Origin: an uncultured Eubacteriales bacterium
GTDB taxonomy: Bacteria; Acidobacteriota; Aminicenantia; Aminicenantales; UBA4085
Length of the DNA stretch: 64,000 nt
Assembly: GCA_964556755.1 (NCBI GenBank)
Contig: CAZKXI010000002.1
Location: forward strand, 88,263 to 152,262
Direction: 5' to 3'
Below the pieces are notes generated by a model that searched no databases, had not been told where the DNA came from, and saw only the letters and a list, made by a program, of their open reading frames with translations. The first letter of the stretch is position 1. The number at the start of each line of letters is the position of its first letter. A program made the translations under genes and the position numbers. This document shows positions 14,897 to 28,458 of the stretch, in pieces.

Positions 14897-14939
14897 GCGC
14901 GCCTGGGGTGACTCGAACACCCGACCAACGGTTTAGGAA
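14897..14939. repeat. attL: 43-bp direct repeat (3' portion of tRNA-Arg)
   Basis: gcgcgcctggggtgactcgaacacccgaccaacggtttaggaa identical to 28384-28426. Confidence 0.85.
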
Positions 14940-14956
14940 GGCGGGATATGCTGGAT

Positions 14957-16105
14957 TTAATTATAGCGTATTGAATCACTTGGGAGCCGCTTGATTTTTA
15001 CGGTGTCGACTTTTTGACGGGATGGATCCATGATTTCGCCCAGCCGCTCAACGGCCCGGCGCATGTTCTCCGGCGTCGGATGGCAATAGCGCATGGTCGT
15101 TTGAATCGACGCATGCCCGAGCACCTTGGAGACCGTGACCAGGTCGACGCCGGCCTCGACCATCTTCGAGGCCGCGGTATGCCTCAGGTCATGGAAGCGG
15201 ACTCCTGTGATCCCCGGATCATCCTCATCGTTGAGATCCGTCTTCGCCTTCCTGCAGGCCGCATGGAAGGCCGTCTTCACGTCCTGGACTGGCTTCGTCG
15301 GATCGGCGCCGGGGAAGACGTATTCCCCCTTCCTGGGAAGGACGGCCAGGGCCTCCATGACAGCGCTGTTGACGGGCACCTTGCGGCCCCTGCCGCTCTT
15401 GGAGTCCTCGATATTGATATAGCCGCGGACCAGGTCGACGTTTGTCCATCGGAGGCCCAGGATCTCGCTCCGCCGCATGCCCGTGTTCAAGGCCACTATG
15501 AGGACAGGGCGGAACGTGTTCGACGCCGACCGGAGGAGCCGATGAGCCTCTCCCGCCGACAGGATCCGCTCTCGAGCGTTGGCCTCTTTCAGCCTTCGGA
15601 CGCGTCGGATGGGGTTCTTCTCGATTCTCCCCCACTCCTCAGCCTTGTTGAAGAGGGTCTTCAGGCATGTCAGCTCTCGGTTGACCGTCGCCGGCGAGAT
15701 CGGAGCGGACTTCTTCGCGTTGTAGTGCTTGACCCGCTCGGCCCGCCGGCCGGCCTTGAACCGCTCCACGTCCTCGGAGCCGATCCCCTGGAGGGAGCGC
15801 CCGGAGAAGTAGCGCTTGAGGTTGTCCAGAAGGATCTCGTCCCGCTTCCAGGAGCGCTTGTTCTGCTTACAGTAGACCTCGAGGAATTCGTCTGCGAAGG
15901 CATCGAAGGGAACGGGATCCCCGCCAGCCTTCTTGAAGCCGAGCCGCTCATTCAGGAGCTCGATGCGGAGCTTCGCCAGGGCGTTCCGGGCCTGTTCCTT
16001 AGTGTATCCCCCGAGCTGACGGATTCGCTTCCCTCGGAAGGTGAAGTCGATATGCCACCTCCCATCCTTTTGGATTAGGTTCCGGTCATTCTTCGGTTTG
16101 ACCAT
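14957..16105 (-). CDS. int: tyrosine-type site-specific integrase (phage integrase family)
   Basis: C-terminal catalytic region RFHDLRHTAAS..LGHASIQTTMRYCH (R..HxxR..Y) and N-terminal SAM-like/arm-binding region; lies immediately inside attL. Confidence 0.85.
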   Translation of the reverse strand: MVKPKNDRNLIQKDGRWHIDFTFRGKRIRQLGGYTKEQARNALAKLRIELLNERLGFKKAGGDPVPFDAFADEFLEVYCKQNKRSWKRDEILLDNLKRYFSGRSLQGIGSEDVERFKAGRRAERVKHYNAKKSAPISPATVNRELTCLKTLFNKAEEWGRIEKNPIRRVRRLKEANARERILSAGEAHRLLRSASNTFRPVLIVALNTGMRRSEILGLRWTNVDLVRGYINIEDSKSGRGRKVPVNSAVMEALAVLPRKGEYVFPGADPTKPVQDVKTAFHAACRKAKTDLNDEDDPGITGVRFHDLRHTAASKMVEAGVDLVTVSKVLGHASIQTTMRYCHPTPENMRRAVERLGEIMDPSRQKVDTVKIKRLPSDSIRYN

Positions 16106-16315
16106 CGCGTCCTCCCCCTCCCGCTCACGCGTTAGGATTGGGAGAGGGAGCCGAAGCCCCCTCTCCTGGTCGACCTTGTCGCCCTCGCCTTACCTCTTCC
16201 AGCACCTTGACGGGCAAGGATTCATCAACGCGGATCCGGCCGAACAGCAGATAATTCTCGATCATCATCTGAATCATCTCCGACTTCCGTTCGTCCATGA
16301 TCCGGATTGAACCTC

Positions 16316-16498
16316 TCAGGCCGTCTTCCCGGCCTTGACGCGAGTGATGGCCTTGCCCAGCCCGTCCGCGATAGTCTGGAGGCGGGTCCGCTCCGAAGGG
16401 CGCATGATCCAAGACAGCTCTTCGATCATGCCCAAAATTGCCCGTCTCATTTCCTCGGCCACATCGACCAGCCCTGCCATCGCCTCAGGATCTGTCAT
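16316..16498 (-). CDS. small hypothetical phage-like protein
   Basis: 60-aa ORF overlapping the next gene's end by 14 nt; no domain recognised. Confidence 0.25.
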   Translation of the reverse strand: MTDPEAMAGLVDVAEEMRRAILGMIEELSWIMRPSERTRLQTIADGLGKAITRVKAGKTA

Positions 16499-16928
16499 TG
16501 TTCCCCGTCCCGGCTACGTAGACCTTGCCGAGCCGGCTGATGGCGCCGTGTGCTTCGACATAGGCGGTCAGCAGCTCAGCTGCAGCCTTGGCCTGATCGA
16601 TGGAGAGGACAAGCTCGAGCCCGCCCCCGGCCTTGTCCTTGAAGAAGACGGCTGTGGTTCCGTCGACGGTTCGCTCCCCGTCTGTCGATACCTCGGACGA
16701 GATGGTGGCCTCAGCGTCGCAGAGCCAGGCCATGATATCGGCCTTCTCCAGCGCCGGCTTGCAGTCCTCGAACTTGATCTCGAGATCGAGCTCGATTCCA
16801 GGGCCATCCTCAACCTCGAGGGCAAGCCCCTTTCCCCCATCGACCAGGGCCCGAGGGCCCTTCGCCTTGATTGCCCCGCCGAAGCGGAATGCTCCCGCGG
16901 CTCCAGTTGGTTCTGCTTTCTGTTTCAT
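16485..16928 (-). CDS. hypothetical phage-like protein
   Basis: Start at internal Met (MKQKAEPTG..) with AAGAGG RBS; 147 aa; no family recognised. Confidence 0.4.
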   Translation of the reverse strand: MKQKAEPTGAAGAFRFGGAIKAKGPRALVDGGKGLALEVEDGPGIELDLEIKFEDCKPALEKADIMAWLCDAEATISSEVSTDGERTVDGTTAVFFKDKAGGGLELVLSIDQAKAAAELLTAYVEAHGAISRLGKVYVAGTGNNDRS

Positions 16929-16947
16929 GAATGACCTCTTGGGAGCT

Positions 16948-17253
16948 TCAGCTGGCAGCCGTAGCGGCCCGGCCATCCAGGAACAGGTCCGACAATCCAT
17001 CCAGGATTTCAGCAGCCAAAAGCCGACGCGACGCGGTCGCCATATCCGCGCTCATTTCGCGCCATACCTTGCCGAAGAGCAGCATCCCCCTCCTTGCTTC
17101 AGCGCTGTCCCTGAGCATCCGAGCGAACTCCTCCGCCGCCAGCTGCAGCTTCTCGTTGCCCGGCATGGGCCCCCGGGCAGACGCTACCCCCACTTTGCGC
17201 CGGCGCTTGATTGCCGGAGCGGCCTTGACCACCGCGGACTTCTTGGACTTCAT
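16948..17253 (-). CDS. hypothetical Lys/Arg-rich small protein
   Basis: Start at MKSKKSAVV with AGGAGG RBS; basic N-terminus. Confidence 0.4.
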   Translation of the reverse strand: MKSKKSAVVKAAPAIKRRRKVGVASARGPMPGNEKLQLAAEEFARMLRDSAEARRGMLLFGKVWREMSADMATASRRLLAAEILDGLSDLFLDGRAATAAS

Positions 17254-17275
17254 CGATCCTCCTTGAAGGGAAAAT

Positions 17276-17482
17276 TTATTTACGACGCCTCGAGGCGCTC
17301 GTAGCGGTTTCTTCGACGCGGCCTTGGAGGTACTGACCAAGGTCGGCCGGATCGATTCGGACCAGACGGCCGACGCGGTACACCTTCAACCGGCCGGAAT
17401 TGATGATCTTGTACGCAGTCGCTCGACTTACCTTGAGGATCCGCCGCAAATCCTGCGGACTTAACAGCTCCATCGTGTTCAT
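17276..17482 (-). CDS. excisionase/AlpA-like helix-turn-helix DNA-binding protein
   Basis: MNTMELLSPQDLRRILKVSRATAYKIINSGRLKVYRVGRLVRI: HTH typical of the excisionase-family DNA-binding domain; AGGAGAA RBS. Confidence 0.55.
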   Translation of the reverse strand: MNTMELLSPQDLRRILKVSRATAYKIINSGRLKVYRVGRLVRIDPADLGQYLQGRVEETATSASRRRK

Positions 17483-17542
17483 CGTTTTCTCCTGTGGAGT
17501 GATGGGGGCGGTCCCGCCCGCCCCCTTCCTCCCTTCCATTGC

Positions 17543-17788
17543 CTAGCGTCCCCGGACCGGGATCAGATAGCCGCAGAGGGCCCTCCGGTTCCCGCGTCGG
17601 ATCAGCACCGAATGACGGAGGGAACGAAACATCCCGCCGTCTTCGTGGAGCGCCTCGAAGTGAGCGCGGAAGCGATGAGCAGCGGGCTCCGATCCGCGCA
17701 TCACCTCGGCCTGGAGGCAAGCCATGCACTCCTCGGCCTGGAAGTCCGCCGGGATTGGCTCCGGCCGGCGCTTCCTTCGTCCGAACAT
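17543..17788 (-). CDS. hypothetical protein
   Basis: 81-aa ORF in island, Cys/His-containing, no family recognised. Confidence 0.25.
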   Translation of the reverse strand: MFGRRKRRPEPIPADFQAEECMACLQAEVMRGSEPAAHRFRAHFEALHEDGGMFRSLRHSVLIRRGNRRALCGYLIPVRGR

Positions 17789-17933
17789 GTCAGACCTCCT
17801 CAGGGCAAGTCTTATGACCAGCCCTCTGTATTCCTTACTATAACATTATATCACTTAATAGCACTTTGTCAAGTGGCATTGTGGCGTCGGATTCGCCTTC
17901 GTTGTAGAATCAATCCTGCGCTGGGATTAGAAA

Positions 17934-18140
17934 ATGCCCGACAAGAAAACCTCAAATGATCTCATGACGAAACAAGAGGTCATGGCATATCTCAGGATCA
18001 GCCATCAGACCCTCTTCCGGATGATGAAATCGGGAGCTTTCCCCTACTTCAAGCTCGAGCGGAAGGTACTGTTCCGGAAGTCTGACGTCGACGCTTACCT
18101 GGAAGCCCACCTAGTGACCCCGACGCGGTCCCGGAGATAG
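17934..18140 (+). CDS. excisionase-family helix-turn-helix DNA-binding protein
   Basis: LMTKQEVMAYLRISHQTLFRMMKSGAFPYFKLERKVLFRKSDVDAYL: canonical excisionase-family HTH; low-GC context. Confidence 0.6.
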   Translation: MPDKKTSNDLMTKQEVMAYLRISHQTLFRMMKSGAFPYFKLERKVLFRKSDVDAYLEAHLVTPTRSRR

Positions 18141-18550
18141 CTCCTATCTTCCTTTGCCCCCTGCCTCCTTTGGCCGAGCTCCTGGAGATCGCCAGTCCTG
18201 GGCCGCAGGATGCACGCTGCGGGCCTCTGTGGCCGATAACTTGAGCCGGGGATGGGTAGGGTACAGGGGAGGCGGAGGGCAAAGCCAGCAGTGCTGGATT
18301 TGCCGGCTCAGGAATTGAGCGCGGGAGCTTTCCTTCTTCGTCAGGCCAAGTTCGGATAAGGTCGGGGCGTCATCACGCGGTTCCACGTAGGCACCGCGTG
18401 GCCCCGTTTTCGTTCCGCCGGCCTTTGCGCCCTGCGCCCGATCTGTAGCGGCCAGCAACTCCCCGAGCTTGCGCTCGGCCCGTAGGGCGTTCGGCCAGGG
18501 CGTCCTCGCCGGCAGGACAAGAGCGGGCGCTTGACCGGTCATCGCTCCGG

Positions 18551-20659
18551 CTATCCATTCCATTTCTTCACGCTGAACTTGCCCACCTCGCCGGCGTCCT
18601 GGACCGTGTCGACGATGAACTCCGACACCTTGCGCCCTCCAATATCGAAGTGAAGGTGATACGTCGCCTTCATTCCACGCCGACGATCTCCCAGCATGGA
18701 CTTTCCACGCGGCGAATCGAGCGGGATGATGGCCTCGGGGCCCGCTTCGCCGGCCAGGAATCCGCCGCCCCGCGAGACAGCCGGTCCGTCGAGAATACCG
18801 CCCTCGGCCAGCGGCGCCGGCTGGGCCTTGATCGCCGCGATCTGGATCGCCCCCTGCGCCAGCGCCAGCGCCAGCATGATCGGCCCCAGGGGCAGGAAGG
18901 GCTTTGTCGCCAGCGCGGAGGTAGCCGCCATCGCGGTATTGATCATCGCCTCGGCGATGGCCCATGACTTCTCTTTGTTCCACGCCTCGCGCTTTGCCGC
19001 CGCCTTCTTGCCCTCGAACTCCTCATCGAGCGCTTCGAGCGCCGCCGCTTTCTCCTCCTCGCTCATCAGGCTGTCTTCGATGGCCTTCTTTCGGGCCTCG
19101 TACTCGGCATTGAGACGCTCTAGATCCCGGTCCAGGTTGGCCTGGTGCAAGGCGTCGATGGCGCCGAAGACGCCGGAGGCGGCCTGGCCGAGGTTCTGCA
19201 TGTCGGAGAGGATCTTGTTGATCTTGGTCTCCCAGGCCTGCTTCGCCGTCTCCGCCGCCTCAACCGCCGCTTGCCCGGCGGCCAGGAAGCCCATGCGCAT
19301 GGGGCCGAGGATCTCATTCTGACCTTCCTCCATCGCCTGGAACACGCCCTTCCAGCCATCATCCGTTTCCTCGATGATGCCGGGGATCTCATCGTCGAGA
19401 GTCTTTGTCAGCTTGAGATACTTCTTAATCTCATCGTTCACATCATCGACGGCCTTGGCTTGGGCCTTCCAGCCTTTATTGATCTCGCCCAGGGTCTTGC
19501 TCTGCTGCTTGATCGGCCCGTCGCTGGCGCGCCCGACTTCGTTGACACCGCCGGCCGCCTCACGCGCCGCGCTTCGGAACGCGTCAAGGATAGCCGGGCC
19601 CTTCTCGGTCTCCATAAGCAGGGCCTTCAGCTTGATCCCGTTGACCTCGTAGGAGGCCCCGGTCGAGTCAAGGAGCGCGACAAGCTCGGCCTGGCTCTTG
19701 CCCTCGCGTACATGGAGCGGGATCGACTTGACGACCTCGTCCGAGTATTCGCGGGCGCTGAACGCTAGCCGGCCGAACTGCGCCGAGGTCATGCCAGCCG
19801 AAAGCGCCGCGTCGCGCAACCGGTTGGAGAAATCGACATTCCTTTCCGTCGCCTCGGCCGTTGCCCTCCGGACCTCATCTTGGGTTGCAATGAGATCGAG
19901 CAACGTATCGGCCGCGTCTTTCACCTTGGAGACAAAGGGGCCCAGGGCATCCTTCAAGACGTTGCCAAGCGCCTCCTTGAGCTCGCCGATGGATTTTGTC
20001 GCCTGGCTTAGCTGCCCGCCGAAGGTATCGGTCTCCGCCGTCGAGCGCTGATACATCGTCTCCAACTGGCGAAGCAACTCGGCCTGCTTCTCCATCGGAG
20101 ACAGGCTCTCGTCGACCTTGATACCGACGCGGCCGAGGGCCTGGTAGCTCCCTTCGAGCCCCTTTGTCACCATCATGGTCGCCGAGTGAAGGTCGGTCCC
20201 CATCGTGGACGCCAGCCCCATCGCGCCCTTCATAGCCCGGTCAATGCCCTGCTGGTCAAGGTCCGTCAACTGGAGCATCAGCGCCTGAGCGGCCTCGATC
20301 TCGTCATCCGTGTAGCGCGTCGCCCGCTGTTGCGCCGAAGCCCAGGCCGTGTAATGCGCCAGGTTGCCTTCGACCGTCCGGCCCGTGGATTCCAGCGCCG
20401 CCCTCAGATTCCGGTCGGCCTGCTCCTGCTCCATCGCGCCCTTGATCGAGTCGCGGAACAGGTCCACCACCTCGCGCCCGGCCCGCTGGAACAGCTGCGC
20501 CGCGATCTGCCCGGCGGCGAACTGCTTCCACAGCCCCCCGAGCGCGGAGTCGGTCTTCGGGGCCTGGCCGCTCATCTCCTCCAGCGAGGCGTTCACGTCG
20601 CGGATCTTCTTGGCGCTATCTCCCGTATTGGCACGAATGTCGAGGTTTACATCGGGCAT
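18551..20659 (-). CDS. phage tail tape measure protein
   Basis: 702 aa, long Ala/Glu/Lys/Leu-rich coiled-coil, internal hydrophobic segment (LPLGPIMLALALAQGAIQIAAI), typical of a tape measure protein. Confidence 0.6.
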   Translation of the reverse strand: MPDVNLDIRANTGDSAKKIRDVNASLEEMSGQAPKTDSALGGLWKQFAAGQIAAQLFQRAGREVVDLFRDSIKGAMEQEQADRNLRAALESTGRTVEGNLAHYTAWASAQQRATRYTDDEIEAAQALMLQLTDLDQQGIDRAMKGAMGLASTMGTDLHSATMMVTKGLEGSYQALGRVGIKVDESLSPMEKQAELLRQLETMYQRSTAETDTFGGQLSQATKSIGELKEALGNVLKDALGPFVSKVKDAADTLLDLIATQDEVRRATAEATERNVDFSNRLRDAALSAGMTSAQFGRLAFSAREYSDEVVKSIPLHVREGKSQAELVALLDSTGASYEVNGIKLKALLMETEKGPAILDAFRSAAREAAGGVNEVGRASDGPIKQQSKTLGEINKGWKAQAKAVDDVNDEIKKYLKLTKTLDDEIPGIIEETDDGWKGVFQAMEEGQNEILGPMRMGFLAAGQAAVEAAETAKQAWETKINKILSDMQNLGQAASGVFGAIDALHQANLDRDLERLNAEYEARKKAIEDSLMSEEEKAAALEALDEEFEGKKAAAKREAWNKEKSWAIAEAMINTAMAATSALATKPFLPLGPIMLALALAQGAIQIAAIKAQPAPLAEGGILDGPAVSRGGGFLAGEAGPEAIIPLDSPRGKSMLGDRRRGMKATYHLHFDIGGRKVSEFIVDTVQDAGEVGKFSVKKWNG

Positions 20660-20711
20660 GATCTTGCTCCTGTGCTTGGTGTCTGACTGTCATCCGATTC
20701 CGGGCAACGGC

Positions 20712-21170
20712 TCACCCGCGGCCCAGGATTTTCATGATCTCATCGTCGAAATACTTCTTCAGGAGATCGCGCTTCGCCGTGTCTGAGAGGTTCATGAACA
20801 TCCGCTGCGGGATCTTCCCGCCGGCTGTGCCCATGTTGTGGAAGTAGGCGATCAGCTCCATGCGCCCCTTGACGGATACCCGGCCATGATGCGGACTCAG
20901 TACCTCCGTCAGGATGGAATCCAGCATCTCGCCGGTCCTCCGGAGGTCGACGCTTCCGGCGCTGACCCCCTTGCGCTTCGCGTAGGCCTCTGAGTAGGGC
21001 TTGAACTTCTTCCCCATGTAATCGACCCCTCGAGCGGTCTTGCGGAGGATGATCCTCTTCACCTCTTCGACGAGCTTCTGCATGGGTTCGGCGGACTCCA
21101 GGAATTCCTCGATCCGCCGCAGCTGGCCGATGGACGCGGCCAGCCCGCGGATGTTGACAGAATCGCCCAC
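20712..21170 (-). CDS. phage virion morphogenesis (tail completion, Mu gpG-like) protein
   Basis: 152 aa; size and composition resemble the phage virion morphogenesis family; adjacent to tape measure. Confidence 0.4.
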   Translation of the reverse strand: MGDSVNIRGLAASIGQLRRIEEFLESAEPMQKLVEEVKRIILRKTARGVDYMGKKFKPYSEAYAKRKGVSAGSVDLRRTGEMLDSILTEVLSPHHGRVSVKGRMELIAYFHNMGTAGGKIPQRMFMNLSDTAKRDLLKKYFDDEIMKILGRG

Positions 21171-21195
21171 CTGATCGCTCCGCTGCCGTTGCGCT

Positions 21196-21522
21196 TCAGT
21201 CGGAACGATCCGCCCGCGAGAAATGGAACTGAATCAGGCCCTGAAAGTCCCGGTCCCCGATCTGGTGCAGATCGTGGAGCACGGCCGCCCTCCGGTCCGC
21301 GAAGTCCCGATTCAGGGCCGTCAGCTCGTTCTTCGCCTCGGAGATCGCGCCGAAGTCCGTCACGTCCGGATCCGCGATCGTCGCCCGGCATCGTCTCATC
21401 TTGGCCAGGATGACGTCGCATTCCTTGACGGCCGCCTCGATCTTCTGCTTCTTCTCCTCTTCCCCCGCCGTTATCCCCGCCGCGATTCTTTCAAGTGGGT
21501 CCATGTTGTTCTCTCCTATCAT
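21196..21522 (-). CDS. hypothetical phage protein
   Basis: Acidic coiled-coil-like 100-aa ORF. Confidence 0.3.
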   Translation of the reverse strand: MIGENNMDPLERIAAGITAGEEEKKQKIEAAVKECDVILAKMRRCRATIADPDVTDFGAISEAKNELTALNRDFADRRAAVLHDLHQIGDRDFQGLIQFHFSRADRSD

Positions 21523-21755
21523 TCCTTGTTCGTCTGCCCCTGCCCGCCGGTGCTCGTATCGACCCGAAGGCAGACACCGCTCCGGATCAGGGCATCCCAG
21601 GCCGCCCGGTCGACCGCCGTCTCGATGGTCTCGAAGATCGCCAGCGGCCGCGGTGCATGCCTTGTCATGTCCACCAGGAAGCGCCGGCCGTCCATGAGGC
21701 CGACGTGGATCTGGCCGTCATCGTCGAGACGCAGCTCGACAGCCTTGGTGCGCAT
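21519..21755 (-). CDS. hypothetical phage protein
   Basis: 78-aa ORF, 4-nt overlap with the downstream gene. Confidence 0.3.
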   Translation of the reverse strand: MRTKAVELRLDDDGQIHVGLMDGRRFLVDMTRHAPRPLAIFETIETAVDRAAWDALIRSGVCLRVDTSTGGQGQTNKE

Positions 21756-21765
21756 GGCCGACCAG

Positions 21766-22164
21766 TTACCCGATCAGCGCTTTCGCCGCCGCGTCATAGT
21801 CGGGCGTCACGTCCAGCCAGCCCAGCTGCCGAATCCCGTTCAGCGCAGTCAGCCGGTCGGTCGTGCTCCCGACGCCGTTGGAGAAGTCGACTCCGGCAAC
21901 GGCCCCGTTGAGGCCGGCGCCGCCCTGCAAGTGCTGAACGTAGTAGACGACGGGCCGGCCGTCGATCAGCCGCACGTGGCCGGGGACGTACATCTCGGCC
22001 AGGGAAGAGGTCGGCCCGGCGCAGGTGTCCTCGCAGCCGTGACTGTGAACCGCCGTCCATGCCGTGTAGCGGGAGGACGTGGTCCCCATTCCGCCGACGA
22101 AGTCGATCCCCCAGGCCGTCCCGGTGTACCCGGCAACCGGATGCTTCAGAGTGTAGGTCTCCAT
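21766..22164 (-). CDS. hypothetical phage protein (G[IV]DF..G.G.TSS motif, paralog of 22181-22537)
   Basis: Start METYTLKHP at 22164 with GGAGG RBS; motif GIDFVGGMGTTSS. Confidence 0.4.
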   Translation of the reverse strand: METYTLKHPVAGYTGTAWGIDFVGGMGTTSSRYTAWTAVHSHGCEDTCAGPTSSLAEMYVPGHVRLIDGRPVVYYVQHLQGGAGLNGAVAGVDFSNGVGSTTDRLTALNGIRQLGWLDVTPDYDAAAKALIG

Positions 22165-22180
22165 GATAAACCTCCAATGT

Positions 22181-22537
22181 TTAAGATTCACGGCCCGCCA
22201 AGGCCGAGTTTTGCGATGCCGATTCCGCGGGCTTCGGGGTCCGCTCTGCCTCATCCGAAATATCAACGCAACCGAGCTCATACACCATCCAATCCCGATC
22301 GAGGATGCTGGAGGTCGAGCCCCTTCCATCGCTGAAATCGATCCCCCCGAAAACGCCGGTAAACCCCGGCCGGGGATGCCTCAGACAATAGACCAGCCGC
22401 TTGATCCTGGGAGCCCCGCCTACGCCCGGAAATGCCTTGCGCTCCTCCAGCCGCTTCTGCAACCGTCGCAGCTCATCGAGCAGCTGCAGATAGTGGGTCT
22501 TTAACAGGCCCATCCGCTGGTCTTCTTCATAGAGCAT
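22181..22537 (-). CDS. hypothetical phage protein (paralogous motif GIDFSDGRGSTSS)
   Basis: Shares the G[IV]DF-x-GxGxTSS motif with the neighbouring gene; start uncertain (22537 or 22564). Confidence 0.35.
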   Translation of the reverse strand: MLYEEDQRMGLLKTHYLQLLDELRRLQKRLEERKAFPGVGGAPRIKRLVYCLRHPRPGFTGVFGGIDFSDGRGSTSSILDRDWMVYELGCVDISDEAERTPKPAESASQNSALAGRES

Positions 22538-24086
22538 GGCTTTCCTCGCTCCGGAGCTGGGCAAGCTCCCCCTCGAGCCGCCTCGTCCAGGCCCGGATCT
22601 CCTCGGCCGCCATGCCCTCGAGCTGGGTCGGGTAGGGCATCGACAGATCGAAGGGATCCGTCAGCCATTGGGACGGCGACCCATTCCATAGGGCCGTTAT
22701 GACTACCCCTCGATTCGCGCCACAGCCGACGCAGACCCCTGCCGCGGCGTTGGCAACGTCATCCTGGGCATTCGGGAAATGGTCGACGGAATCCTTGCCG
22801 CCCGCCCTGGCCCGACGCTCCAGGCTCCGCAGCTGCTCCCGCAGCCGGGCATTGTCCAGGAGCTCGACCCGGTTCTGCATGACCAGCGGGAGAAACTCCA
22901 GATAGATAGCGCTCTTGTCCTTGTCCGATGGGATGTAGCGGATCCCATACTTCCGGAAGGCATCCGCCGGCCACTCTCCCCCGTAGCGGTCTCCCGTCAC
23001 CCTCTCGATCCCGTAGGATCGAAGGAGCTGGGCGTAGTCGGACACAACCGACTCCGGGGCGAAGGGCGGACGCCTCTCCTCGAGGGCGTCCAGGATCACC
23101 TTGCCGCGGGGATCTCGATGGGCTATGGCCAGCGTGAAGCTGTCCCGGCGCCCGCCGCTGGGATCTACGAAGGCCTCGTAGATGCCGCGGTATGCCCGCG
23201 GGAGCCGCGTCCGGTCGGGCACTATGACGGACTCGATCGCCTCGGACGTCAGGTAGCTCTCGAGGTCCGACCTGAAATTGGCATTCCATTCCGATTCAGC
23301 GGCAGCAGCGTCGGCGCGGAAGGCCCGCTCGATCAGCCGCTCCTTGATGGTCGGATTCATGGCCCTGGTCGGGGCCTGCCATACCAGGGCGTCCTCATCC
23401 TCGCGCCCCCACTTGTCGCGGAAGGCCTCGTACAGGACGCCCGATTTCGAGTAGGGGCTCGAGATGCCGAAGATCATCCCGCCGGGGATCGTCGCCAGGG
23501 ACGGCCGCAGAGCGTTCAGCACCTCCGCCGCCGGATTCGTACCCTCGGCCCGCCAGAAGGCCAGCTCGTCGCAGATCGCGGCGACGACGGTATAGCCCCG
23601 GAGGGCGCGGTAGCTGCATGTTCCGATCTTGATGCCGACCTGATTCCGAAGGCTGATCTCCCAGGCCAGGTCACTCTCGACCTCCTGGCCCAGGATCTTC
23701 GAGGAGCTCAGGATTCCCTTGATGTAGCCCAGGATATTCCGGGCCTGATCACGGTCGGTGGCGATGACCATAACCCAGGCCGTCTCGCCGGCCGCCAGGT
23801 AGGGGCGCCAGTCATGGAAGAGCGCCAGATAACAGGCCAGGATCGCGGCCATGAAGCTCTTCCCCCCGCGGCGCCCGACGATCGCATAAACCTCGGCAGG
23901 CATGCGCTCGGGGAGATTCTCCCGCCCGGTGTACCTCCGGAAGGCCTCGAGCTCATCGGGGTCCATCGGCAGACAAAAGACGGCCTTCAGGAAGACGATC
24001 CAGTTGCGCCAGGTATCCATGTCCTTGAACATCCGGCCGAACAGCTGCCGATCGCCTAGGGCGTCCAGGATCGTGAATTCGCTCAT
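22527..24086 (-). CDS. terL: phage terminase large subunit
   Basis: 519 aa; N-terminal ATPase with Walker A-like VGRRGGKSF and downstream nuclease-like region; typical terminase_6-type architecture. Confidence 0.75.
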   Translation of the reverse strand: MSEFTILDALGDRQLFGRMFKDMDTWRNWIVFLKAVFCLPMDPDELEAFRRYTGRENLPERMPAEVYAIVGRRGGKSFMAAILACYLALFHDWRPYLAAGETAWVMVIATDRDQARNILGYIKGILSSSKILGQEVESDLAWEISLRNQVGIKIGTCSYRALRGYTVVAAICDELAFWRAEGTNPAAEVLNALRPSLATIPGGMIFGISSPYSKSGVLYEAFRDKWGREDEDALVWQAPTRAMNPTIKERLIERAFRADAAAAESEWNANFRSDLESYLTSEAIESVIVPDRTRLPRAYRGIYEAFVDPSGGRRDSFTLAIAHRDPRGKVILDALEERRPPFAPESVVSDYAQLLRSYGIERVTGDRYGGEWPADAFRKYGIRYIPSDKDKSAIYLEFLPLVMQNRVELLDNARLREQLRSLERRARAGGKDSVDHFPNAQDDVANAAAGVCVGCGANRGVVITALWNGSPSQWLTDPFDLSMPYPTQLEGMAAEEIRAWTRRLEGELAQLRSEESHAL

Positions 24087-24451
24087 CGGGGCTGTCCCTC
24101 GCCACGGCCCCCATCGTCGACGTCCCAGGAGGGCCGGGAAGGGCCTAGGCGCCGCTTCCAGAAGGATTCCCGGCGGGAGGTCAAGGATTCGGCATCCAGG
24201 GCCTCTCTGCGCTCGTCAAAGTAAGGCTTTGCAGCCTCCAGCGCCGCCAGGAGCTCGGGGAGCATGCGAAGCTTCACGGTCACGCCGCGGCCCGTAGGCG
24301 CAACCTCGTCTCTCCCTTCCTCCGGGCAGGGCAGCTTGTAGACGCGGACGTCCAGGTAATCGACCCCGTTGTGCACGACGCCGGCGATCTGCACCTCCTC
24401 GTAGCGGTTCTTTCGGAGTACGGCCAGGATTTCGCGGCTGTCGGGCCTCAT
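24083..24451 (-). CDS. hypothetical phage protein
   Basis: Start MRPDSREIL at 24451 overlapping the upstream gene's stop (ATGA); no family recognised. Confidence 0.35.
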   Translation of the reverse strand: MRPDSREILAVLRKNRYEEVQIAGVVHNGVDYLDVRVYKLPCPEEGRDEVAPTGRGVTVKLRMLPELLAALEAAKPYFDERREALDAESLTSRRESFWKRRLGPSRPSWDVDDGGRGEGQPR

Positions 24452-24966
24452 GACTGGACTCCTTCGGGGGCCGGCTGCGGGGCCCGCTTCTCTTCCTTCT
24501 TGGCGTCGATGTAGCGGCCCAGGTCCAGGCACTCGGCGGACTTGCGCTTGTCGATCCCCAGAGCCTGCAGCTCCAGGCGGAGGGAATTCGTATAGGCCAG
24601 ATAGAAGTCTCGGAGCGCCGGATCCAGCTCGCCGCCCTTGAAGATGCCTGTCTCCCTGGCATGCTCCTCGATCACGCGTAGAACCCCGAGCTTGGTCACG
24701 GCCCGGTCGATCAGGATCCGCTGGGCAGTCGTCAGATCCTGCTCGAGCGGGCCCAGGTCTCGGACCAGGCCGCAGCGGGCCTCGGCCAGGTAGGCCCGGA
24801 GCCATCGCCGACGCTCGGGGAGCTCGCCCCTGGTGAGGTAGGAATACCCGCCATGTACCGGAGGGCGCCCAATCCTTCCCTTGACCTTCAATTTTTGATC
24901 CGTTTTCGCGGTCAGCTGGTCGTTTTTCATCATGTTGATTTCATTAAAGATATGATTTTGGGCCAT
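24448..24966 (-). CDS. putative terminase small subunit / DNA-binding packaging protein
   Basis: ~160 aa basic protein upstream of terL with a putative HTH near the N-terminus; AT-rich start region, start uncertain (24930-24966). Confidence 0.35.
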   Translation of the reverse strand: MAQNHIFNEINMMKNDQLTAKTDQKLKVKGRIGRPPVHGGYSYLTRGELPERRRWLRAYLAEARCGLVRDLGPLEQDLTTAQRILIDRAVTKLGVLRVIEEHARETGIFKGGELDPALRDFYLAYTNSLRLELQALGIDKRKSAECLDLGRYIDAKKEEKRAPQPAPEGVQS

Positions 24967-25104
24967 TGGAAAACCGCCCCAAAAGTCGACAAATGCCCAG
25001 TTTTACAGGGGAAAACGGTGGTTTTATAGACCGTTGGTTTAGGGCAATTCCGGGGCATTCCAGGGGGTCCAGGAGGGGTACTCGGCCGAGAATTTCGTCT
25101 CAGA

Positions 25105-25319
25105 ACCTGTTCCCGCCCACTCCGTTTTTTTCGACCCTCGGGAACAGGTTTTTGCCCTATACCAGTCTCCGACCTGTTCCCATGTCGGGAACAGATCCAA
25201 CAGGGGGAAAGCGTCGATCTGTCCGACCTGTCCGGACCTGTTCCCATACCTCCGGAACAGATGGTCAACCTGACTTGTTCCATTGTTCCCCCCCCTAGGG
25301 GGGAACATGGGAACAGGTC
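25105..25319. repeat. iteron array: >=9 copies of GGAACAG(G/A)T or ACCTGTTCCC, several as inverted pairs, plus the near-palindrome GTTCCCCCCCCTAGGGGGGAAC
   Basis: Seen directly at 25105, 25140, 25172, 25188, 25236, 25254, 25274-25290, 25301, 25310; sits immediately downstream of the replication ATPase gene and upstream of terS. Confidence 0.7.
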
Positions 25320-25332
25320 GACTTGGGCCAGA

Positions 25333-26706
25333 TCAATCATGGATTGCCTCATAGAGCCTGCGGCGGCCTTCCAGGCGTGACCGCCAGCTGGCGCCCTCCC
25401 CGCGAAGGAGTAGCGCCAGCGCCTTCCCTCGCCGGCCGATCTCGAGCTCCTCCTTGATCCACTCGATGAGGGCGGATTGCGTGAGCGGTCCTGGGGCTTG
25501 TCTGAGATGGTCTGCAATCGCGTCGATCCGGTCCTGGTCGGGGCTTGCGGCCAGCGTGAACAGCCCTTCCGGCGTCCGCTGCAGGAACGTCTGGGCCGGG
25601 GCGAAGCGGGACTTCTCCCCCGTCCCCAGCCGATAGAGCGCGTCGGGATCCGGTTCGCCGTCGTCCTCGATCTTCTGAAACGTCGAACGCTTGACGGGGT
25701 ACAGGCTCAGGGCGCAGTCGGCCAGGTCGACGATGGTGCTTGATCCCTTGCTTACGCGCTCGTTCGATTTCGGCGTGTGATGCGCCGCCTGAACGGTGAA
25801 GCCGCAGCTGGTCAGCTCGCGGAGGCGCCCCATGACCAGGCTCATGATCTCGTCGTCATTCTGCGTCCCGCTGTGGGAGCTTCTGAGGGTATCGAAAACG
25901 AGAAGGCTCCCAGCGGGGAGGCGCTTGTAGACGTCCCATCGGTCGGAGTCGAGCTTGGGAGGCGGCGTCGAGAAAGAGTAATGCCACAGGCTGATATCGT
26001 TGGCTCCGATCAGGCGGATCCTGTCGGCAACCCATGCGATCGGATTCTCATAGTCGATGATGACGACGGGGCGGCGCTTCGTCGGCAGGGAGAATATTGG
26101 ATTGCCGGAGGCGACGGCCTGGCCCGATTGCATGAAGAAGGTCGACTTGCCGGTGCCGCCTCGGGAGATCACAACCGTGACGGCCTTGTCGACCACGAGC
26201 TGATCGACGACGTACTCGATCGAGACGTCCAGGGCGGCAACCTCGCTTCCCGACATCAGGAAACGCGCCGGGTCGACCTCAGCCGGGCCCTTCGCAAGCT
26301 CCTCAATCTCTCGGTCGAGGATGCCGAGCAGCGCCTGGGCTTCGGTGTCCCAGGTTCCCGTTGCCTTGTAGTTGCGGATCTCGCGCTCGAGCAGCTTGGC
26401 TCGTTCCGAGTACTTCCGCTCGAGGCGCAGGGCTTGCACCTTAGCCTCGAATCCCGCCGGCGGCAGGAGATAGCAGCCGGAGAGCTCTTTGAATAGGGCC
26501 TCGAGGGAGCTGCCGCATTTGGCCGAGAGAAGGCCGTCCTCTACGGGCTTGGTCGGATCGTCCTCGCTGAGCTCAAGGATGGCCTCGGCAATCTTCCGCC
26601 GCGGCCCGGTGAAGAGGCCGACCGCGTAGCCTTCTGCGCGCTGCCGCTCGGGCTGCTCCTTGGCCGTGAAGAGAAGCTCACGTTCTAGAGTAATAGGGGA
26701 ATTCAT
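25333..26706 (-). CDS. RecA-fold AAA ATPase, replicative helicase/primase-associated (RepA/DnaB-like) protein
   Basis: Walker A VVISRGGTGKSTF, Walker B-like LLVFDTL; start MNSPITLE at 26706. Confidence 0.55.
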   Translation of the reverse strand: MNSPITLERELLFTAKEQPERQRAEGYAVGLFTGPRRKIAEAILELSEDDPTKPVEDGLLSAKCGSSLEALFKELSGCYLLPPAGFEAKVQALRLERKYSERAKLLEREIRNYKATGTWDTEAQALLGILDREIEELAKGPAEVDPARFLMSGSEVAALDVSIEYVVDQLVVDKAVTVVISRGGTGKSTFFMQSGQAVASGNPIFSLPTKRRPVVIIDYENPIAWVADRIRLIGANDISLWHYSFSTPPPKLDSDRWDVYKRLPAGSLLVFDTLRSSHSGTQNDDEIMSLVMGRLRELTSCGFTVQAAHHTPKSNERVSKGSSTIVDLADCALSLYPVKRSTFQKIEDDGEPDPDALYRLGTGEKSRFAPAQTFLQRTPEGLFTLAASPDQDRIDAIADHLRQAPGPLTQSALIEWIKEELEIGRRGKALALLLRGEGASWRSRLEGRRRLYEAIHD

Positions 26707-26786
26707 GCGCCGCTCCCGCCGTCCGGGAGCAGCCAATCACTCGTCTTTGTTGCCATGCTGACCTACCGGGAAAAAGATGTATGCGA

Positions 26787-26990
26787 CTACCTCGGTTTCC
26801 TCTTCGTGGGGATGGAGCTTTTCTCGAGCTCGCGCTCTACGGCGGCCCAATCGACTCTGAGGCCGAAATGGGGCGGCCGCGAATGCGGGAGCTGGCCGGC
26901 CGAGATCAAGTTGTAAATGCGCTTGACCGAAAGCCCCAAGCGCTCGGCCGCCTCGGCGGGACGCAGCCAGCGGCGGACTATTTCAGACAT
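26787..26990 (-). CDS. excisionase/MerR-like helix-turn-helix DNA-binding protein
   Basis: MSEIVRRWLRPAEAAERLGLSVKRIYNLISAGQLP: HTH; ATG overlaps the upstream gene's stop. Confidence 0.5.
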   Translation of the reverse strand: MSEIVRRWLRPAEAAERLGLSVKRIYNLISAGQLPHSRPPHFGLRVDWAAVERELEKSSIPTKRKPR

Positions 26991-27240
26991 GGGCCGTCTC
27001 CTCGTGTTTGGAGTCGCCGGGCTCGATGGCCGGAAGAGGGCCTGGAAAGAGAAACCCCTCGGAGACGCCGAGGACGGCCGCGAGCCTAGAGGCCTGAGCA
27101 GCAGTCGGCAGCTCCCAGCCCCGCGAGATTCTGCTGAGGCGTGACGGGTGAAGCCCCGCGAGCGCCGCAAGCTGAATCTGGGGTAGGCCGCGGAAACGCA
27201 AAAGCTCTGCGATTCGGTTGGTTGGGGCTTCGTTCCTCAT
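26983..27240 (-). CDS. XRE/Cro-CI family HTH transcriptional regulator
   Basis: IAELLRFRGLPQIQLAALAGLHPSRLSRISRG: canonical XRE HTH; palindromic operator-like sequence just upstream (27305-27333). Confidence 0.6.
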   Translation of the reverse strand: MRNEAPTNRIAELLRFRGLPQIQLAALAGLHPSRLSRISRGWELPTAAQASRLAAVLGVSEGFLFPGPLPAIEPGDSKHEETAHV

Positions 27241-27304
27241 ACCCCAAATATAGACCGACAGAAGGAACTAATCAATGCTCATCTTATTTATTTACAACTA
27301 TTTA

Positions 27305-27333
27305 GACACTTTTTCTCGACGAGATAAAGTGTC
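27305..27333. promoter_or_regulatory. operator-like inverted repeat GACACTTT-N13-AAAGTGTC upstream of the Cro/XRE-like gene
   Basis: 8-bp perfect arms at 27305-27312 and 27326-27333 in an AT-rich intergenic region; a TTGACA (minus strand, 27330-27335) overlaps the right arm. Confidence 0.4.
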
Positions 27334-27355
27334 AATAAGACCGGAGGGCGAGGTT

Positions 27356-28096
27356 TTATATGCAGCCAGCAAGCGAGATTAAGTCGGCGATTGTCTCTAC
27401 ACCCTTCCTGATATGCGTCATAGAACACGGGCCCAAGCCACCCCATCGGCGCCAGTTTTGAGCTATGTATTGATAGCTTGGGCGAGTCGGCGTTTCCCTG
27501 AGATCGTACCAGCAGAGGTTTCTAAAGAAAGCGGGCTTGGTCCGTTCCTCTTTCTCGACCGCGTAGACTCGACCGATTTCGGATTTGATCCCCCCCCACA
27601 TGCCCTCCCATTCTCGCTGATTGGTCCAAGGGCTGATCCGAACATAAATGAACGCCTCTTCACGCCCGACGAACTCCTGCCAACAGTCGCCGCGACGATC
27701 CACCATCGACGCGGCATCCGGGCTCTGCATGACCTCGGCCAGGCTTCTCGGTCGCCCCGGACGTTTCGGCGCTGGATGGATAATATACTGACGAAGCTCG
27801 GGCCCTTCGGGGCCTTGGGGCCGGAGAGGACGACGGCAGATGATCTCGCTCCGGTAGACGAATCGCTCGATCGTCGCCAGGTCTCCGCTCCATTGCAGAT
27901 TGATCCTCCACCTCGAGCAGAAGTCGCCCCACTCATCAGAATATGAAAGTCCCCGGCTCTCCCCGCAGTGATCGAGCTGGCGGATGAATTCTTTGTTTCG
28001 TCGAAGCAGCTCGGCTCGCGCCAGGATCGGATCGAATGGGCGTTTGCTCTCCTCGATCTTGCGATTACGGAGATCAGGATCGATCTGAATAGCCAT
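27356..28096 (-). CDS. hypothetical cargo protein (no recognisable domain), in low-GC segment next to attR
   Basis: 246-aa ORF, Trp/Arg-rich, in distinctly AT-richer DNA between the repressor genes and the att site. Confidence 0.4.
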   Translation of the reverse strand: MAIQIDPDLRNRKIEESKRPFDPILARAELLRRNKEFIRQLDHCGESRGLSYSDEWGDFCSRWRINLQWSGDLATIERFVYRSEIICRRPLRPQGPEGPELRQYIIHPAPKRPGRPRSLAEVMQSPDAASMVDRRGDCWQEFVGREEAFIYVRISPWTNQREWEGMWGGIKSEIGRVYAVEKEERTKPAFFRNLCWYDLRETPTRPSYQYIAQNWRRWGGLGPCSMTHIRKGVETIADLISLAGCI

Positions 28097-28383
28097 GTCC
28101 GCCTCCCTGTGGCAGATCCCCGATTAAATAGAACCGGGCCAAGCGGTCAGGGATGATCCGCCGTTCGGGAGCGACCCTAGGCCCGGCTGATGTCATGGAT
28201 AGGTTCCTTCCTCAAACATAGGGTCCGCAACGGAGCAACGCAAGCGTCAATTTTGAGTGTCGACTTTTATGACGTGTTTTTTCGGTTTGGGCGGGATTTG
28301 GCGGGAATTGGCGGGAATGAGCCCCAAGGGCAAGGCTACGCGTAATGCGTTGATTTCTCAAGGTTTTAAGGGGTAAAAGGCAA

Positions 28384-28426
28384 GCGCGCCTGGGGTGACT
28401 CGAACACCCGACCAACGGTTTAGGAA
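28384..28426. repeat. attR: 43-bp direct repeat within tRNA-Arg 3' half
   Basis: Identical to 14897-14939. Confidence 0.85.
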
Positions 28427-28458
28427 ACCGCTGCTCTATCCGACTGAGCTACAGGCGC
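28385..28458 (-). tRNA. tRNA-Arg (anticodon CCT)
   Basis: Minus-strand cloverleaf: acceptor GCGCCTG/CAGGCGC, D-arm GCTCAGTCGGATAGAGC, anticodon loop TTCCTAA, T-arm GGGTGTTCGAGTCACCC; 74 nt without CCA. Confidence 0.85.

Follow-up and report, generated by a model that had tools for sequence, protein, structure and literature searches.

What does a cluster of short repeats do when it directly follows a helicase gene inside an integrated chromosomal island, and which protein reads it? The question is posed by a 64,000-nucleotide (nt) stretch of contig CAZKXI010000002.1, from an uncultured Eubacteriales bacterium, that was analysed whole and is called the window below. At positions 25105-25319, on a 13.5-kb island, twelve copies of the word GGA(A)CAG stand in a fixed layout between rep, a gene for a RecA-fold ATPase, and a gene labelled terS-like by its position. 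A search for copies in the window and comparison with 30+ related loci mark this array as a putative replication origin of the island, and we think it very probable that it is one, with the repeats (iterons) read by the winged helix that Rep itself is predicted to carry. We infer both the binding and the origin function from the comparison of loci and the predicted protein structure described below.

The array stands out statistically. The exact word GGAACAGRT occurs nine times on the two strands of the window, against 0.61 ± 0.86 expected (maximum 4) from 100 dinucleotide-preserving shuffles, and seven of the nine matches fall within 25105-25318. With the core relaxed to GGA(A)CA[GAT], the array holds 12 copies in addition to a GC-rich palindrome: those on the plus strand are at 25141, 25188, 25254, 25302 and 25310, those on the minus strand at 25107, 25174, 25219, 25228, 25238, 25275 and 25283, with the copies at 25219 and 25228 being GGACAG variants. 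In the window the iteron takes the form GGAACAG(G/A)T; cores span 7-10 nt in mixed orientation, and successive copies start about 8 to 66 nt apart. This enumeration, made in the manner of a regular expression, bears out the initial annotation, which was drawn from the sequence alone and had counted at least nine copies including inverted pairs. Its three head-to-head pairs with gaps of 5 or 8 nt are reduced to two, ACCTGTTCCC-N5-GGGAACAGAT at 25172-25196 and ACCTGTTCCC-N8-GGAACAGAT at 25236-25262, the third (25105-25114 and 25140-25149) having a gap of 25 nt. The near-palindrome that it had pointed out is indeed present at 25285-25306 (GTTCCCCCCCCTAGGGGGGAAC, C8-TA-G6) and forms the core of a longer inverted repeat, whose 22-nt arms (25272-25293 and 25298-25319) are 86% complementary and which, folded as single-stranded DNA, reaches -18.8 kcal/mol (z = -4.4). 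Outside the array, the window contains nine other exact GGAACAG heptamers, five of them inside the island (13.3 kb), at 15992, 16980, 18069, 20455 and 20488, and four in the other 50 kb. Two of these extend to the full 9-mer, at 16980 and 20455, and each has the sequence GGAACAGGTCC, the same as array copies; the extra sites in the island could be a composition effect or secondary Rep sites.

The arrangement recurs among relatives of the locus. Rep has 26 homologues in an index of 5.8 billion proteins, and scans of genomes and metagenomes yield 120 loci with Rep relatives, carried by metagenome-assembled genomes of Aminicenantes, Nitrospirota, Syntrophorhabdus, Eubacteriales and others, from uncultivated hosts. 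The sole Rep match in the phage collection is partial, at 27%, and the plasmid collection returns just IncQ RepA, at ~26% identity over the ATPase. All full-length homologues recovered (30+ distinct loci, with 35-61% Rep identity) have an array after the stop codon. The first copy lies 5-35 nt past the rep stop in 35 of 37 array-bearing loci, the window's array starting at 17 nt, and copy number is 12 in the window and 8-16 in relatives. The ATPase is also found in longer relatives of Rep (600-700 residues; L006-L043 and many of L054-L123), often along with the C-terminal domain, and for one of them a Toprim-like Pfam domain is among the precomputed annotations.

With the palindrome centre as zero and < and > for orientation, the family layout runs < -17, < -11, palindrome, > +11, > +17, < +36, continues with copies in tandem at > +43/+52/+62/+71, about one helical turn apart, of which relatives have three to four, and closes with < +101, > +116, an A/T-rich stretch, < +167 and > +182. 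The window's copies stand at -18, -10, +10, +18, +38, +54, +64, +73, +104, +118, +152 and +186, those at +64 and +73 being the GGACAG variants. The spacing, which the initial annotation had described as irregular at 20-50 bp, is instead a positional layout conserved in relatives. In window coordinates, Block A is the long inverted repeat at 25272-25319, in which two iterons (cores 25310-25316 and 25302-25308), the palindrome and two inverted iterons (cores 25283-25289 and 25275-25281) follow one another. Block B (25219-25260) consists of a plus-strand iteron at 25254-25260 and then three tandem minus-strand iterons spaced by 9-10 bp (25238-25244, GGAACAG; 25228-25233 and 25219-25224, both GGACAG). 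Block C is an inverted pair, 25188-25194 (plus) and 25174-25180 (minus), equivalent to +101/+116 in the family layout, and Block D is the last such pair, 25141-25147 (plus) and 25107-25113 (minus), equivalent to +167/+182, with a run of seven T residues (25125-25131) in its 23-nt spacer.

The layout is held while the letters change. The repeat word differs by locus (GGAACAG, GGACAGA, AGAACAG, GGAAAAG, GGAAATAC, GGAAAAAC, TGGGCAA, GGAAAACT), and the palindrome arms vary yet stay complementary around a T/A-rich centre (C-run/G-run, CCACAC/GTGTGG, CCTCTC/GAGAGG, TATATATA, GGGGGGTATATATATACCCCCC); the palindromes were compared by detecting stems locus by locus, because pairs could not be counted in the poorly registered MAFFT alignment. 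In the mean of 23 loci, A+T excess is highest (+0.15 to +0.19) at +135 to +160, in an interval that separates the last iteron pairs and maps to about 25131-25165 in the window, beside the T run of Block D. The most A+T-rich part of the window's array, containing A/T tracts, is 25115-25171, which may be the site that melts first. In L005, L048, L056, L059, L066, L075, L084 and others, an extra conserved inverted flank, GACCGTGAT ... ATCACTTCA, encloses the four iterons nearest the palindrome; it is missing from the window, where GTCGAC ... GTCAGG stands in its place.

Which protein tracks the repeats can be read from natural mosaics among these loci (positions here are relative to the rep stop). 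Between the window and L001 the repeat is GGAACAGGT versus AGACAGA, and the Rep proteins are 62% identical as a whole, 52% over the last 70 residues and 64% over the rest; the terS-like proteins are 98% identical (84 residues). At the DNA level, the terS-like gene with ~70 bp upstream of it is ~95% identical, and identity is 37-75% in the block that starts inside rep (-925) and ends at +300, with the junction near window position 25040. L083 and L088 read GGAAATAC versus GGAAAAAC, with Rep identity of 60% over the last 70 residues and 79% over the rest, and terS-like identity of 99%; eight of eight iterons are co-positioned with one base different in each copy, and the diverged block spans -199 to +270. 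L056 and L059 share the iteron core and differ in its 3' flank, with terS-like proteins 93% identical: their DNA is 97-100% identical until 88 nt before the rep stop and 90-100% identical beyond +270, and the sole diverged block (47-78%), from about -58 to +242, covers the last ~20 rep codons, which encode the wing, and the array, and holds no gene besides the rep 3' end.

Other pairs show protein and repeats kept together. In L119 and L101 the arrays are 97% identical, as are the last 70 residues of Rep, with the rest of the protein at 66%; in L005 and L066 the arrays are 89% identical, the last 70 residues 80%, the rest 59% and the terS-like proteins 61%. In L059 and L071, where GGAACAG faces AGAACAG and the terS-like proteins are 45% identical, rep DNA is 80-98% identical save for a valley of 42-58% at -135 to -78, the part that encodes helices 2-3 of the winged helix. 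By these paired repeat and C-terminal changes, the array travels with the Rep C-terminus: in the sequences compared it changes together with that part of the protein and not with the terS-like gene. The terS-like protein is evidently not the reader, because the window and L001 have different repeats and yet 98% identity in this protein.

The architecture predicted for Rep fits this role. Rep (457 residues; 25333-26706, minus strand) matches Pfam AAA_25 at 1.2e-17. A profile of 13 Rep homologues searched against the Protein Data Bank (PDB) finds RSF1010 RepA (1g8y, 2e-14) and, for the N-terminal half, the DnaB-like entry 3bgw (1.5e-5); the Rep of Staphylococcus aureus pathogenicity islands (SaPIs) is absent from the PDB sequence matches. 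With an AlphaFold (AF2) model of predicted local distance difference test score (pLDDT) 77, Foldseek retrieves full-length DnaB (2q6t, 4e-12) and RepA, at a template modelling (TM) score of 0.66 on the target. By profile and model, Rep is a DnaB-like N-terminal domain followed by a RecA-fold ATPase of the superfamily 4 (SF4) type, as in RSF1010 RepA and DnaB, and by a C-terminal winged helix. This last domain (residues ~391-454, encoded at 25345-25536 on the minus strand) is the proposed iteron reader. It is rare, with 132 representatives at E <= 1e-3 among 1.84 billion cluster representatives, and members of its family nearly always form the C-terminal end of proteins with ~450 or ~600-700 residues. 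The start of the putative recognition helix is specific to the repeat class: [KNQ]K[GA]K goes with GGACAGA, R[RK]xx with GGAACAG, and MR[SQ][SR] with AGAACAG.

A mechanism can be proposed on this basis. After excision of the island, Rep subunits would dock on the iterons via their winged helices. Assemblies of Rep would be made to face opposite ways by the two plus two inverted iterons that surround the TA-centred palindrome and by the three inverted pairs further along, and the tandem copies, at one-helical-turn spacing, would favour cooperative binding; as a suggestion, 12 sites would equal the number of winged helices in two hexamers. Either the A/T-tract spacer (~25115-25171) or the extruded palindrome would melt first, and Rep would then load itself as the hexameric replicative helicase. 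Its DnaB-like N-terminal domain may then recruit the host primase, a step proposed because the island has no primase gene of its own and made plausible by the fact that the N-terminal domain of DnaB is the part that contacts DnaG. The fuller claim is that Rep is a self-loading SF4 initiator-helicase with a fused winged helix, needing no separate initiator or loader and acting at a rigid, cruciform-capable origin of 12-13 sites, a convergent invention within an undescribed satellite family; to this we give even chances.

Several points weigh against this interpretation. Support for the origin model is comparative and structural inference throughout, and part of the co-variation could be linkage, because related sequences inherit linked features together. 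The protein encoded by the neighbouring HTH_17 gene also differs in two informative pairs (56% identity between the window and L001, ~85% between L083 and L088). The A/T-rich stretch is short and only 50-60% A+T, in a genome of 67% G+C, and a search that allowed two mismatches found no DnaA box. Helicases of the DnaB family normally depend on an initiator and a loader distinct from themselves, and self-loading is for this reason an extrapolation from the unrelated Reps of superfamilies 3 and 6 (SF3 and SF6). Finally, most of the larger relatives (650-700 residues) have no array directly downstream. Among the relatives of 600-700 residues the exceptions are L030 (AAACACTG, 7-11 copies) and L038 (TTACAAAAC, ~10 copies); the origins of the others may lie elsewhere.

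Other readings of the array each have some point in their favour. The repeats might be a packaging recognition site of the cosB or pac type, bound by the terS-like protein, so that the island's terminase would package island DNA. In lambda, cosB carries several sites at which the small terminase binds, located just ahead of the gene for that subunit, and the window and most relatives have the array upstream of the terS-like/terL pair. Repeats of such a site are expected to co-vary with the small terminase, and here they do not: they differ while the terS-like proteins are 98-99% (window/L001, L083/L088) or 93% (L056/L059) identical. The distance of the array to rep is fixed at 5-35 nt, whereas that to the terS-like gene ranges from ~140 to >380 nt, with an extra gene in between in L083 and L088; the arrays of L047/L053 and L062 have no detectable terS-like or terL homologue downstream; and the terS-like protein has no recognisable terminase or DNA-binding signature. 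We regard packaging as very improbable. Related to plasmid biology rather than to phages is the proposal of a partition site (centromere), or of a copy-control (handcuffing) array with no origin function. Centromeres of the parS/parC type also have clustered short repeats in mixed orientation. The island ORFs (open reading frames) scanned have no meaningful match of the ParA, ParB or ParR type, with a SopA match of the HTH_17 protein at E = 0.028 as the sole hint. The element is an island of 13.5 kb integrated in the chromosome, and its array is coupled to a helicase C-terminus. We give partition a still lower probability than packaging.

The array as an operator or enhancer for the HTH_17/AlpA-like regulator, controlling the late terS-like/terL operon or read-through from rep, is a more serious contender and still an unlikely one. 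An HTH_17 gene is always nearby, upstream of rep or, in L083 and L088, after the array; its product, as said, differs in the two informative mosaic pairs; and the array is located between two co-directional transcription units. Against this, the diverged block of L056 and L059 is confined to the last ~20 rep codons and the array, the alignable upstream segment being ~92% identical, and in both L119/L101 and L005/L066 the array tracks the C-terminal 70 residues of Rep. The promoter is presumed to lie in the stretch that is conserved along with the terS-like module, and this stretch is not part of the array (it is below 25040 in the window). Twelve to thirteen sites in 210 bp, fixed in layout and accompanied by a palindrome at the centre and a spacer rich in A/T, agree with published origins (PMC9371898, PMC6092414) and not with typical operators. 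The initial annotation had offered the partition site and the operator array for HTH regulators beside an iteron origin to which the Rep encoded next to it would bind, on an island of phage or PICI type (PICI, phage-inducible chromosomal island). The origin is the proposal that gains, from the locking of the array to the rep 3' end and from its co-variation with the Rep C-terminus, a coupling that the operator leaves unexplained; partition loses ground for want of a ParA or ParB gene among the island ORFs scanned.

The terS label of the downstream gene deserves its own caution. Neither as a single protein nor as an 8-member alignment does its product match the Pfam, PHROG, NCBIfam or PDB profiles, and the label rests on size, on the place upstream of terL and on conserved synteny. 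Of the earlier placement of the array between terS and a RecA-fold ATPase gene, the ATPase side stands, and the terS side is positional only. The gene may represent an undescribed small-terminase family. Members from the window, L002, L004, L005, L066, L075 and L104 share an N-terminal GRPPxHGG(Y/F)S motif.

More ordinary identities were also considered for the array. The ORFs that overlap it (24930-25517, 24966-25298 and 25039-25308) have a G+C content at third codon positions (GC3) of 0.52-0.57, and the region is taken as non-coding because this is far below the ~0.8 of real genes nearby. Rfam gives just sub-threshold hairpin matches to microRNA models (<=27 bits against thresholds of 37-98 bits). 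An intrinsic terminator for rep is rejected, since no T-run follows the palindrome in the window or in relatives, and the terminator scan lists none at the array palindrome. Neither the array nor the spacer that leads to the terS-like gene was found to contain a promoter of the sigma-70 type. A CRISPR array (clustered regularly interspaced short palindromic repeats) would have regular direct repeats of 24-48 nt and unique spacers of similar length; the repeats here are 7-10 nt, in both orientations and with starts about 8 to 66 nt apart, and the initial annotation was right to set this possibility aside.

Set beside known systems, the origin reading finds its closest parallel in SaPIs and other PICIs. 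Their ori lies immediately 3' of rep and contains 6-12 short iterons with cores of 5-8 nt. These form sets to either side of an AT-rich region, at least two per side and oppositely oriented, and are recognised by a winged helix that belongs to the C-terminal domain of Rep, a helicase that loads itself (PMC9371898, PMC6092414). Similarly, and as in EcCICFT073, the array is immediately 3' of rep (17 nt in the window, 5-35 nt in 35 of 37 loci); the iterons are short and, with 12 in the window, within the range of 6-12; inverted pairs flank the A/T-tract spacer at 25115-25171, which in absolute terms is only modestly rich in A+T; and a C-terminal winged helix appears, from sequence and model, to set iteron specificity. 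The resemblance extends to the element, an integrase-bearing island of ~10-15 kb in which rep is preceded by an alpA/xis-like gene and followed by packaging genes. The motor is where the likeness ends. SaPI Reps are SF3 or SF6 (AAA+) helicases (PMC9371898), whereas the ATPase here is a RecA-fold SF4 enzyme (AAA_25, RepA/DnaB-like) with a DnaB-like N-terminal domain, and consequently Rep is no SF3/SF6 homologue of SaPI Rep. Also unlike SaPIs and PICIs, the first iteron block contains a GC-rich cruciform-capable palindrome, a primase gene is absent, the integrase lies at the far end of the island, terL and tail-related genes are carried, and the hosts belong to uncultivated lineages.

Phage P4 alpha and pRN1 ORF904 likewise unite a helicase and a C-terminal winged-helix domain in a single polypeptide. 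The P4 ori and crr are made of short octamer repeats in both orientations. In pRN1, an essential non-coding region lies downstream of the rep gene (PMC2777425). Both proteins are fusions of a primase with an SF3 helicase, whereas Rep here has no primase domain and a RecA-fold ATPase, and no sequence similarity of Rep to either was detected by PDB profile and phage collection searches. The IncQ plasmid RSF1010 supplies, in RepA, the closest solved and annotated relative of the Rep ATPase (1g8y, 2e-14; ~26% to IncQ RepA genes), and it too has an iteron-containing origin. In that system a second protein, RepC, reads the iterons, and RepA lacks any domain that reads DNA sequence; the island instead encodes helicase and winged helix as one protein, and its iterons measure 7-10 nt and point both ways, as opposed to direct repeats of ~20 bp. 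In the classical iteron plasmids (pPS10, F, R6K, RK2), a winged-helix initiator binds repeats beside an A/T-rich unwinding element. Those origins have direct repeats of 17-22 bp, DnaA boxes and an initiator that is not a helicase, in contrast to the short mixed-orientation repeats, the absence of a DnaA box and the putative initiator that is the helicase itself in the window. The literature searched, a partial collection, yielded no characterised SF4 helicase with a fused origin-reading winged helix. By sequence and model, the feature is most likely a PICI/SaPI-style iteron origin paired with a DnaB/RepA-type helicase that carries its own winged helix.

The island that carries this origin candidate spans 14897-28426, within a lower-GC stretch (around 14-30 kb) of a window of ~67% G+C. 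It is integrated in tRNA-Arg and bounded by 43-bp direct repeats, the attachment (att) sites: one, a copy of the tRNA 3' end, at 14897-14939 marks one island boundary, and the other is the 3' 43 nt (28384-28426) of the intact tRNA-Arg(CCT) gene at 28384-28458. The flanking genes, encoding a GH36 melibiase, an MscS/cNMP channel and a CHASE2 cyclase, are ordinary chromosomal ones. All recognisable island genes are on the minus strand, and in the order of transcription they begin with a gene of 246 codons without assigned function (27356-28096), the HTH_17/excisionase-family (AlpA-like) gene at 26787-27170 (Pfam HTH_17, 3e-8; TIGR01764, 8e-6), rep, the array and the terS-like gene (172 residues; 24448-24966). 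Next come terL, for the large terminase subunit (22527-24086; PHROG 2, 3e-23, with a weak Pfam TerL_ATPase match), a tail-completion/Neck1-like gene, and a gene for a 702-residue protein (18551-20659) with weak tape-measure similarity (PHROG 1272, 4e-8; tape measure of the Rhodobacter capsulatus gene transfer agent, RcGTA, 7e-5). A stretch of ~2.4 kb (16105-18551), whose ORFs are all of low GC3 and without domain matches, adjoins the tyrosine integrase gene (14957-16105; Pfam Phage_integrase, 1e-33; PHROG 1, 2e-78) at the island end far from the intact tRNA.

Portal, capsid and lysis genes were not detected among the island ORFs by domain scans, and the gene content is that of a phage-satellite-like island and not of a full prophage. 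As in PICIs, att sites, int, alpA/xis, rep and ori are found on an island of ~10-15 kb without a full virion and lysis set. The HTH_17 gene precedes rep in the window, L001 and L002 and follows the array in L083 and L088, where a 63-codon HTH_17/excisionase-like gene at ~+173 to +365 after the rep stop separates the array from the terS-like gene. Between the HTH_17 gene and the 246-codon gene of the window, 27247-27330 contains back-to-back sigma-70-like promoters, TTGATT-17-TATATT on the minus strand and TAGACA-16-TAAAGT on the plus strand, and is a candidate regulatory switch region of the island. L046 and L052, both from metagenomes, look like minimal islands, with the terS-like gene, terL and the integrase gene within ~3-4 kb after rep and the array; the order alpA-rep-ori-terS-terL-int may be the conserved core of the family. 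On present comparisons, this is an undescribed family of tRNA-integrated, terminase-encoding islands from uncultivated bacteria.

The principle of a satellite helicase that reads its own downstream origin is already established; the change of helicase class, the unusually rigid layout of 12-13 sites and the natural specificity swaps recommend the locus as an experimental system. The natural specificity classes are in effect ready-made swaps, e.g., the concerted single-base change in all eight iterons that accompanies C-terminal changes in Rep. The rule that a repeat layout follows the rep stop codon marks origins and helps to delimit satellites in metagenomes, and the locus offers a concrete, testable pair of origin and initiator for integrated islands found so far only in uncultivated bacteria. 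If Rep reads its own iterons, a DnaB-type helicase would have acquired origin recognition as the unrelated SF3 and SF6 satellite helicases have. The design of helicase, C-terminal winged helix and downstream iterons, so far seen with SF3 and SF6 motors (SaPI Rep, P4 alpha, pRN1 ORF904), would then extend to SF4; this would be clear-cut convergence and would provide a simple model of how a bacterial-type replicative helicase can load without a loader. A further consequence would be a satellite family not described before, encoding terminase, integrated in tRNA genes and found in uncultivated anaerobes, the Aminicenantes, Nitrospirota and others.

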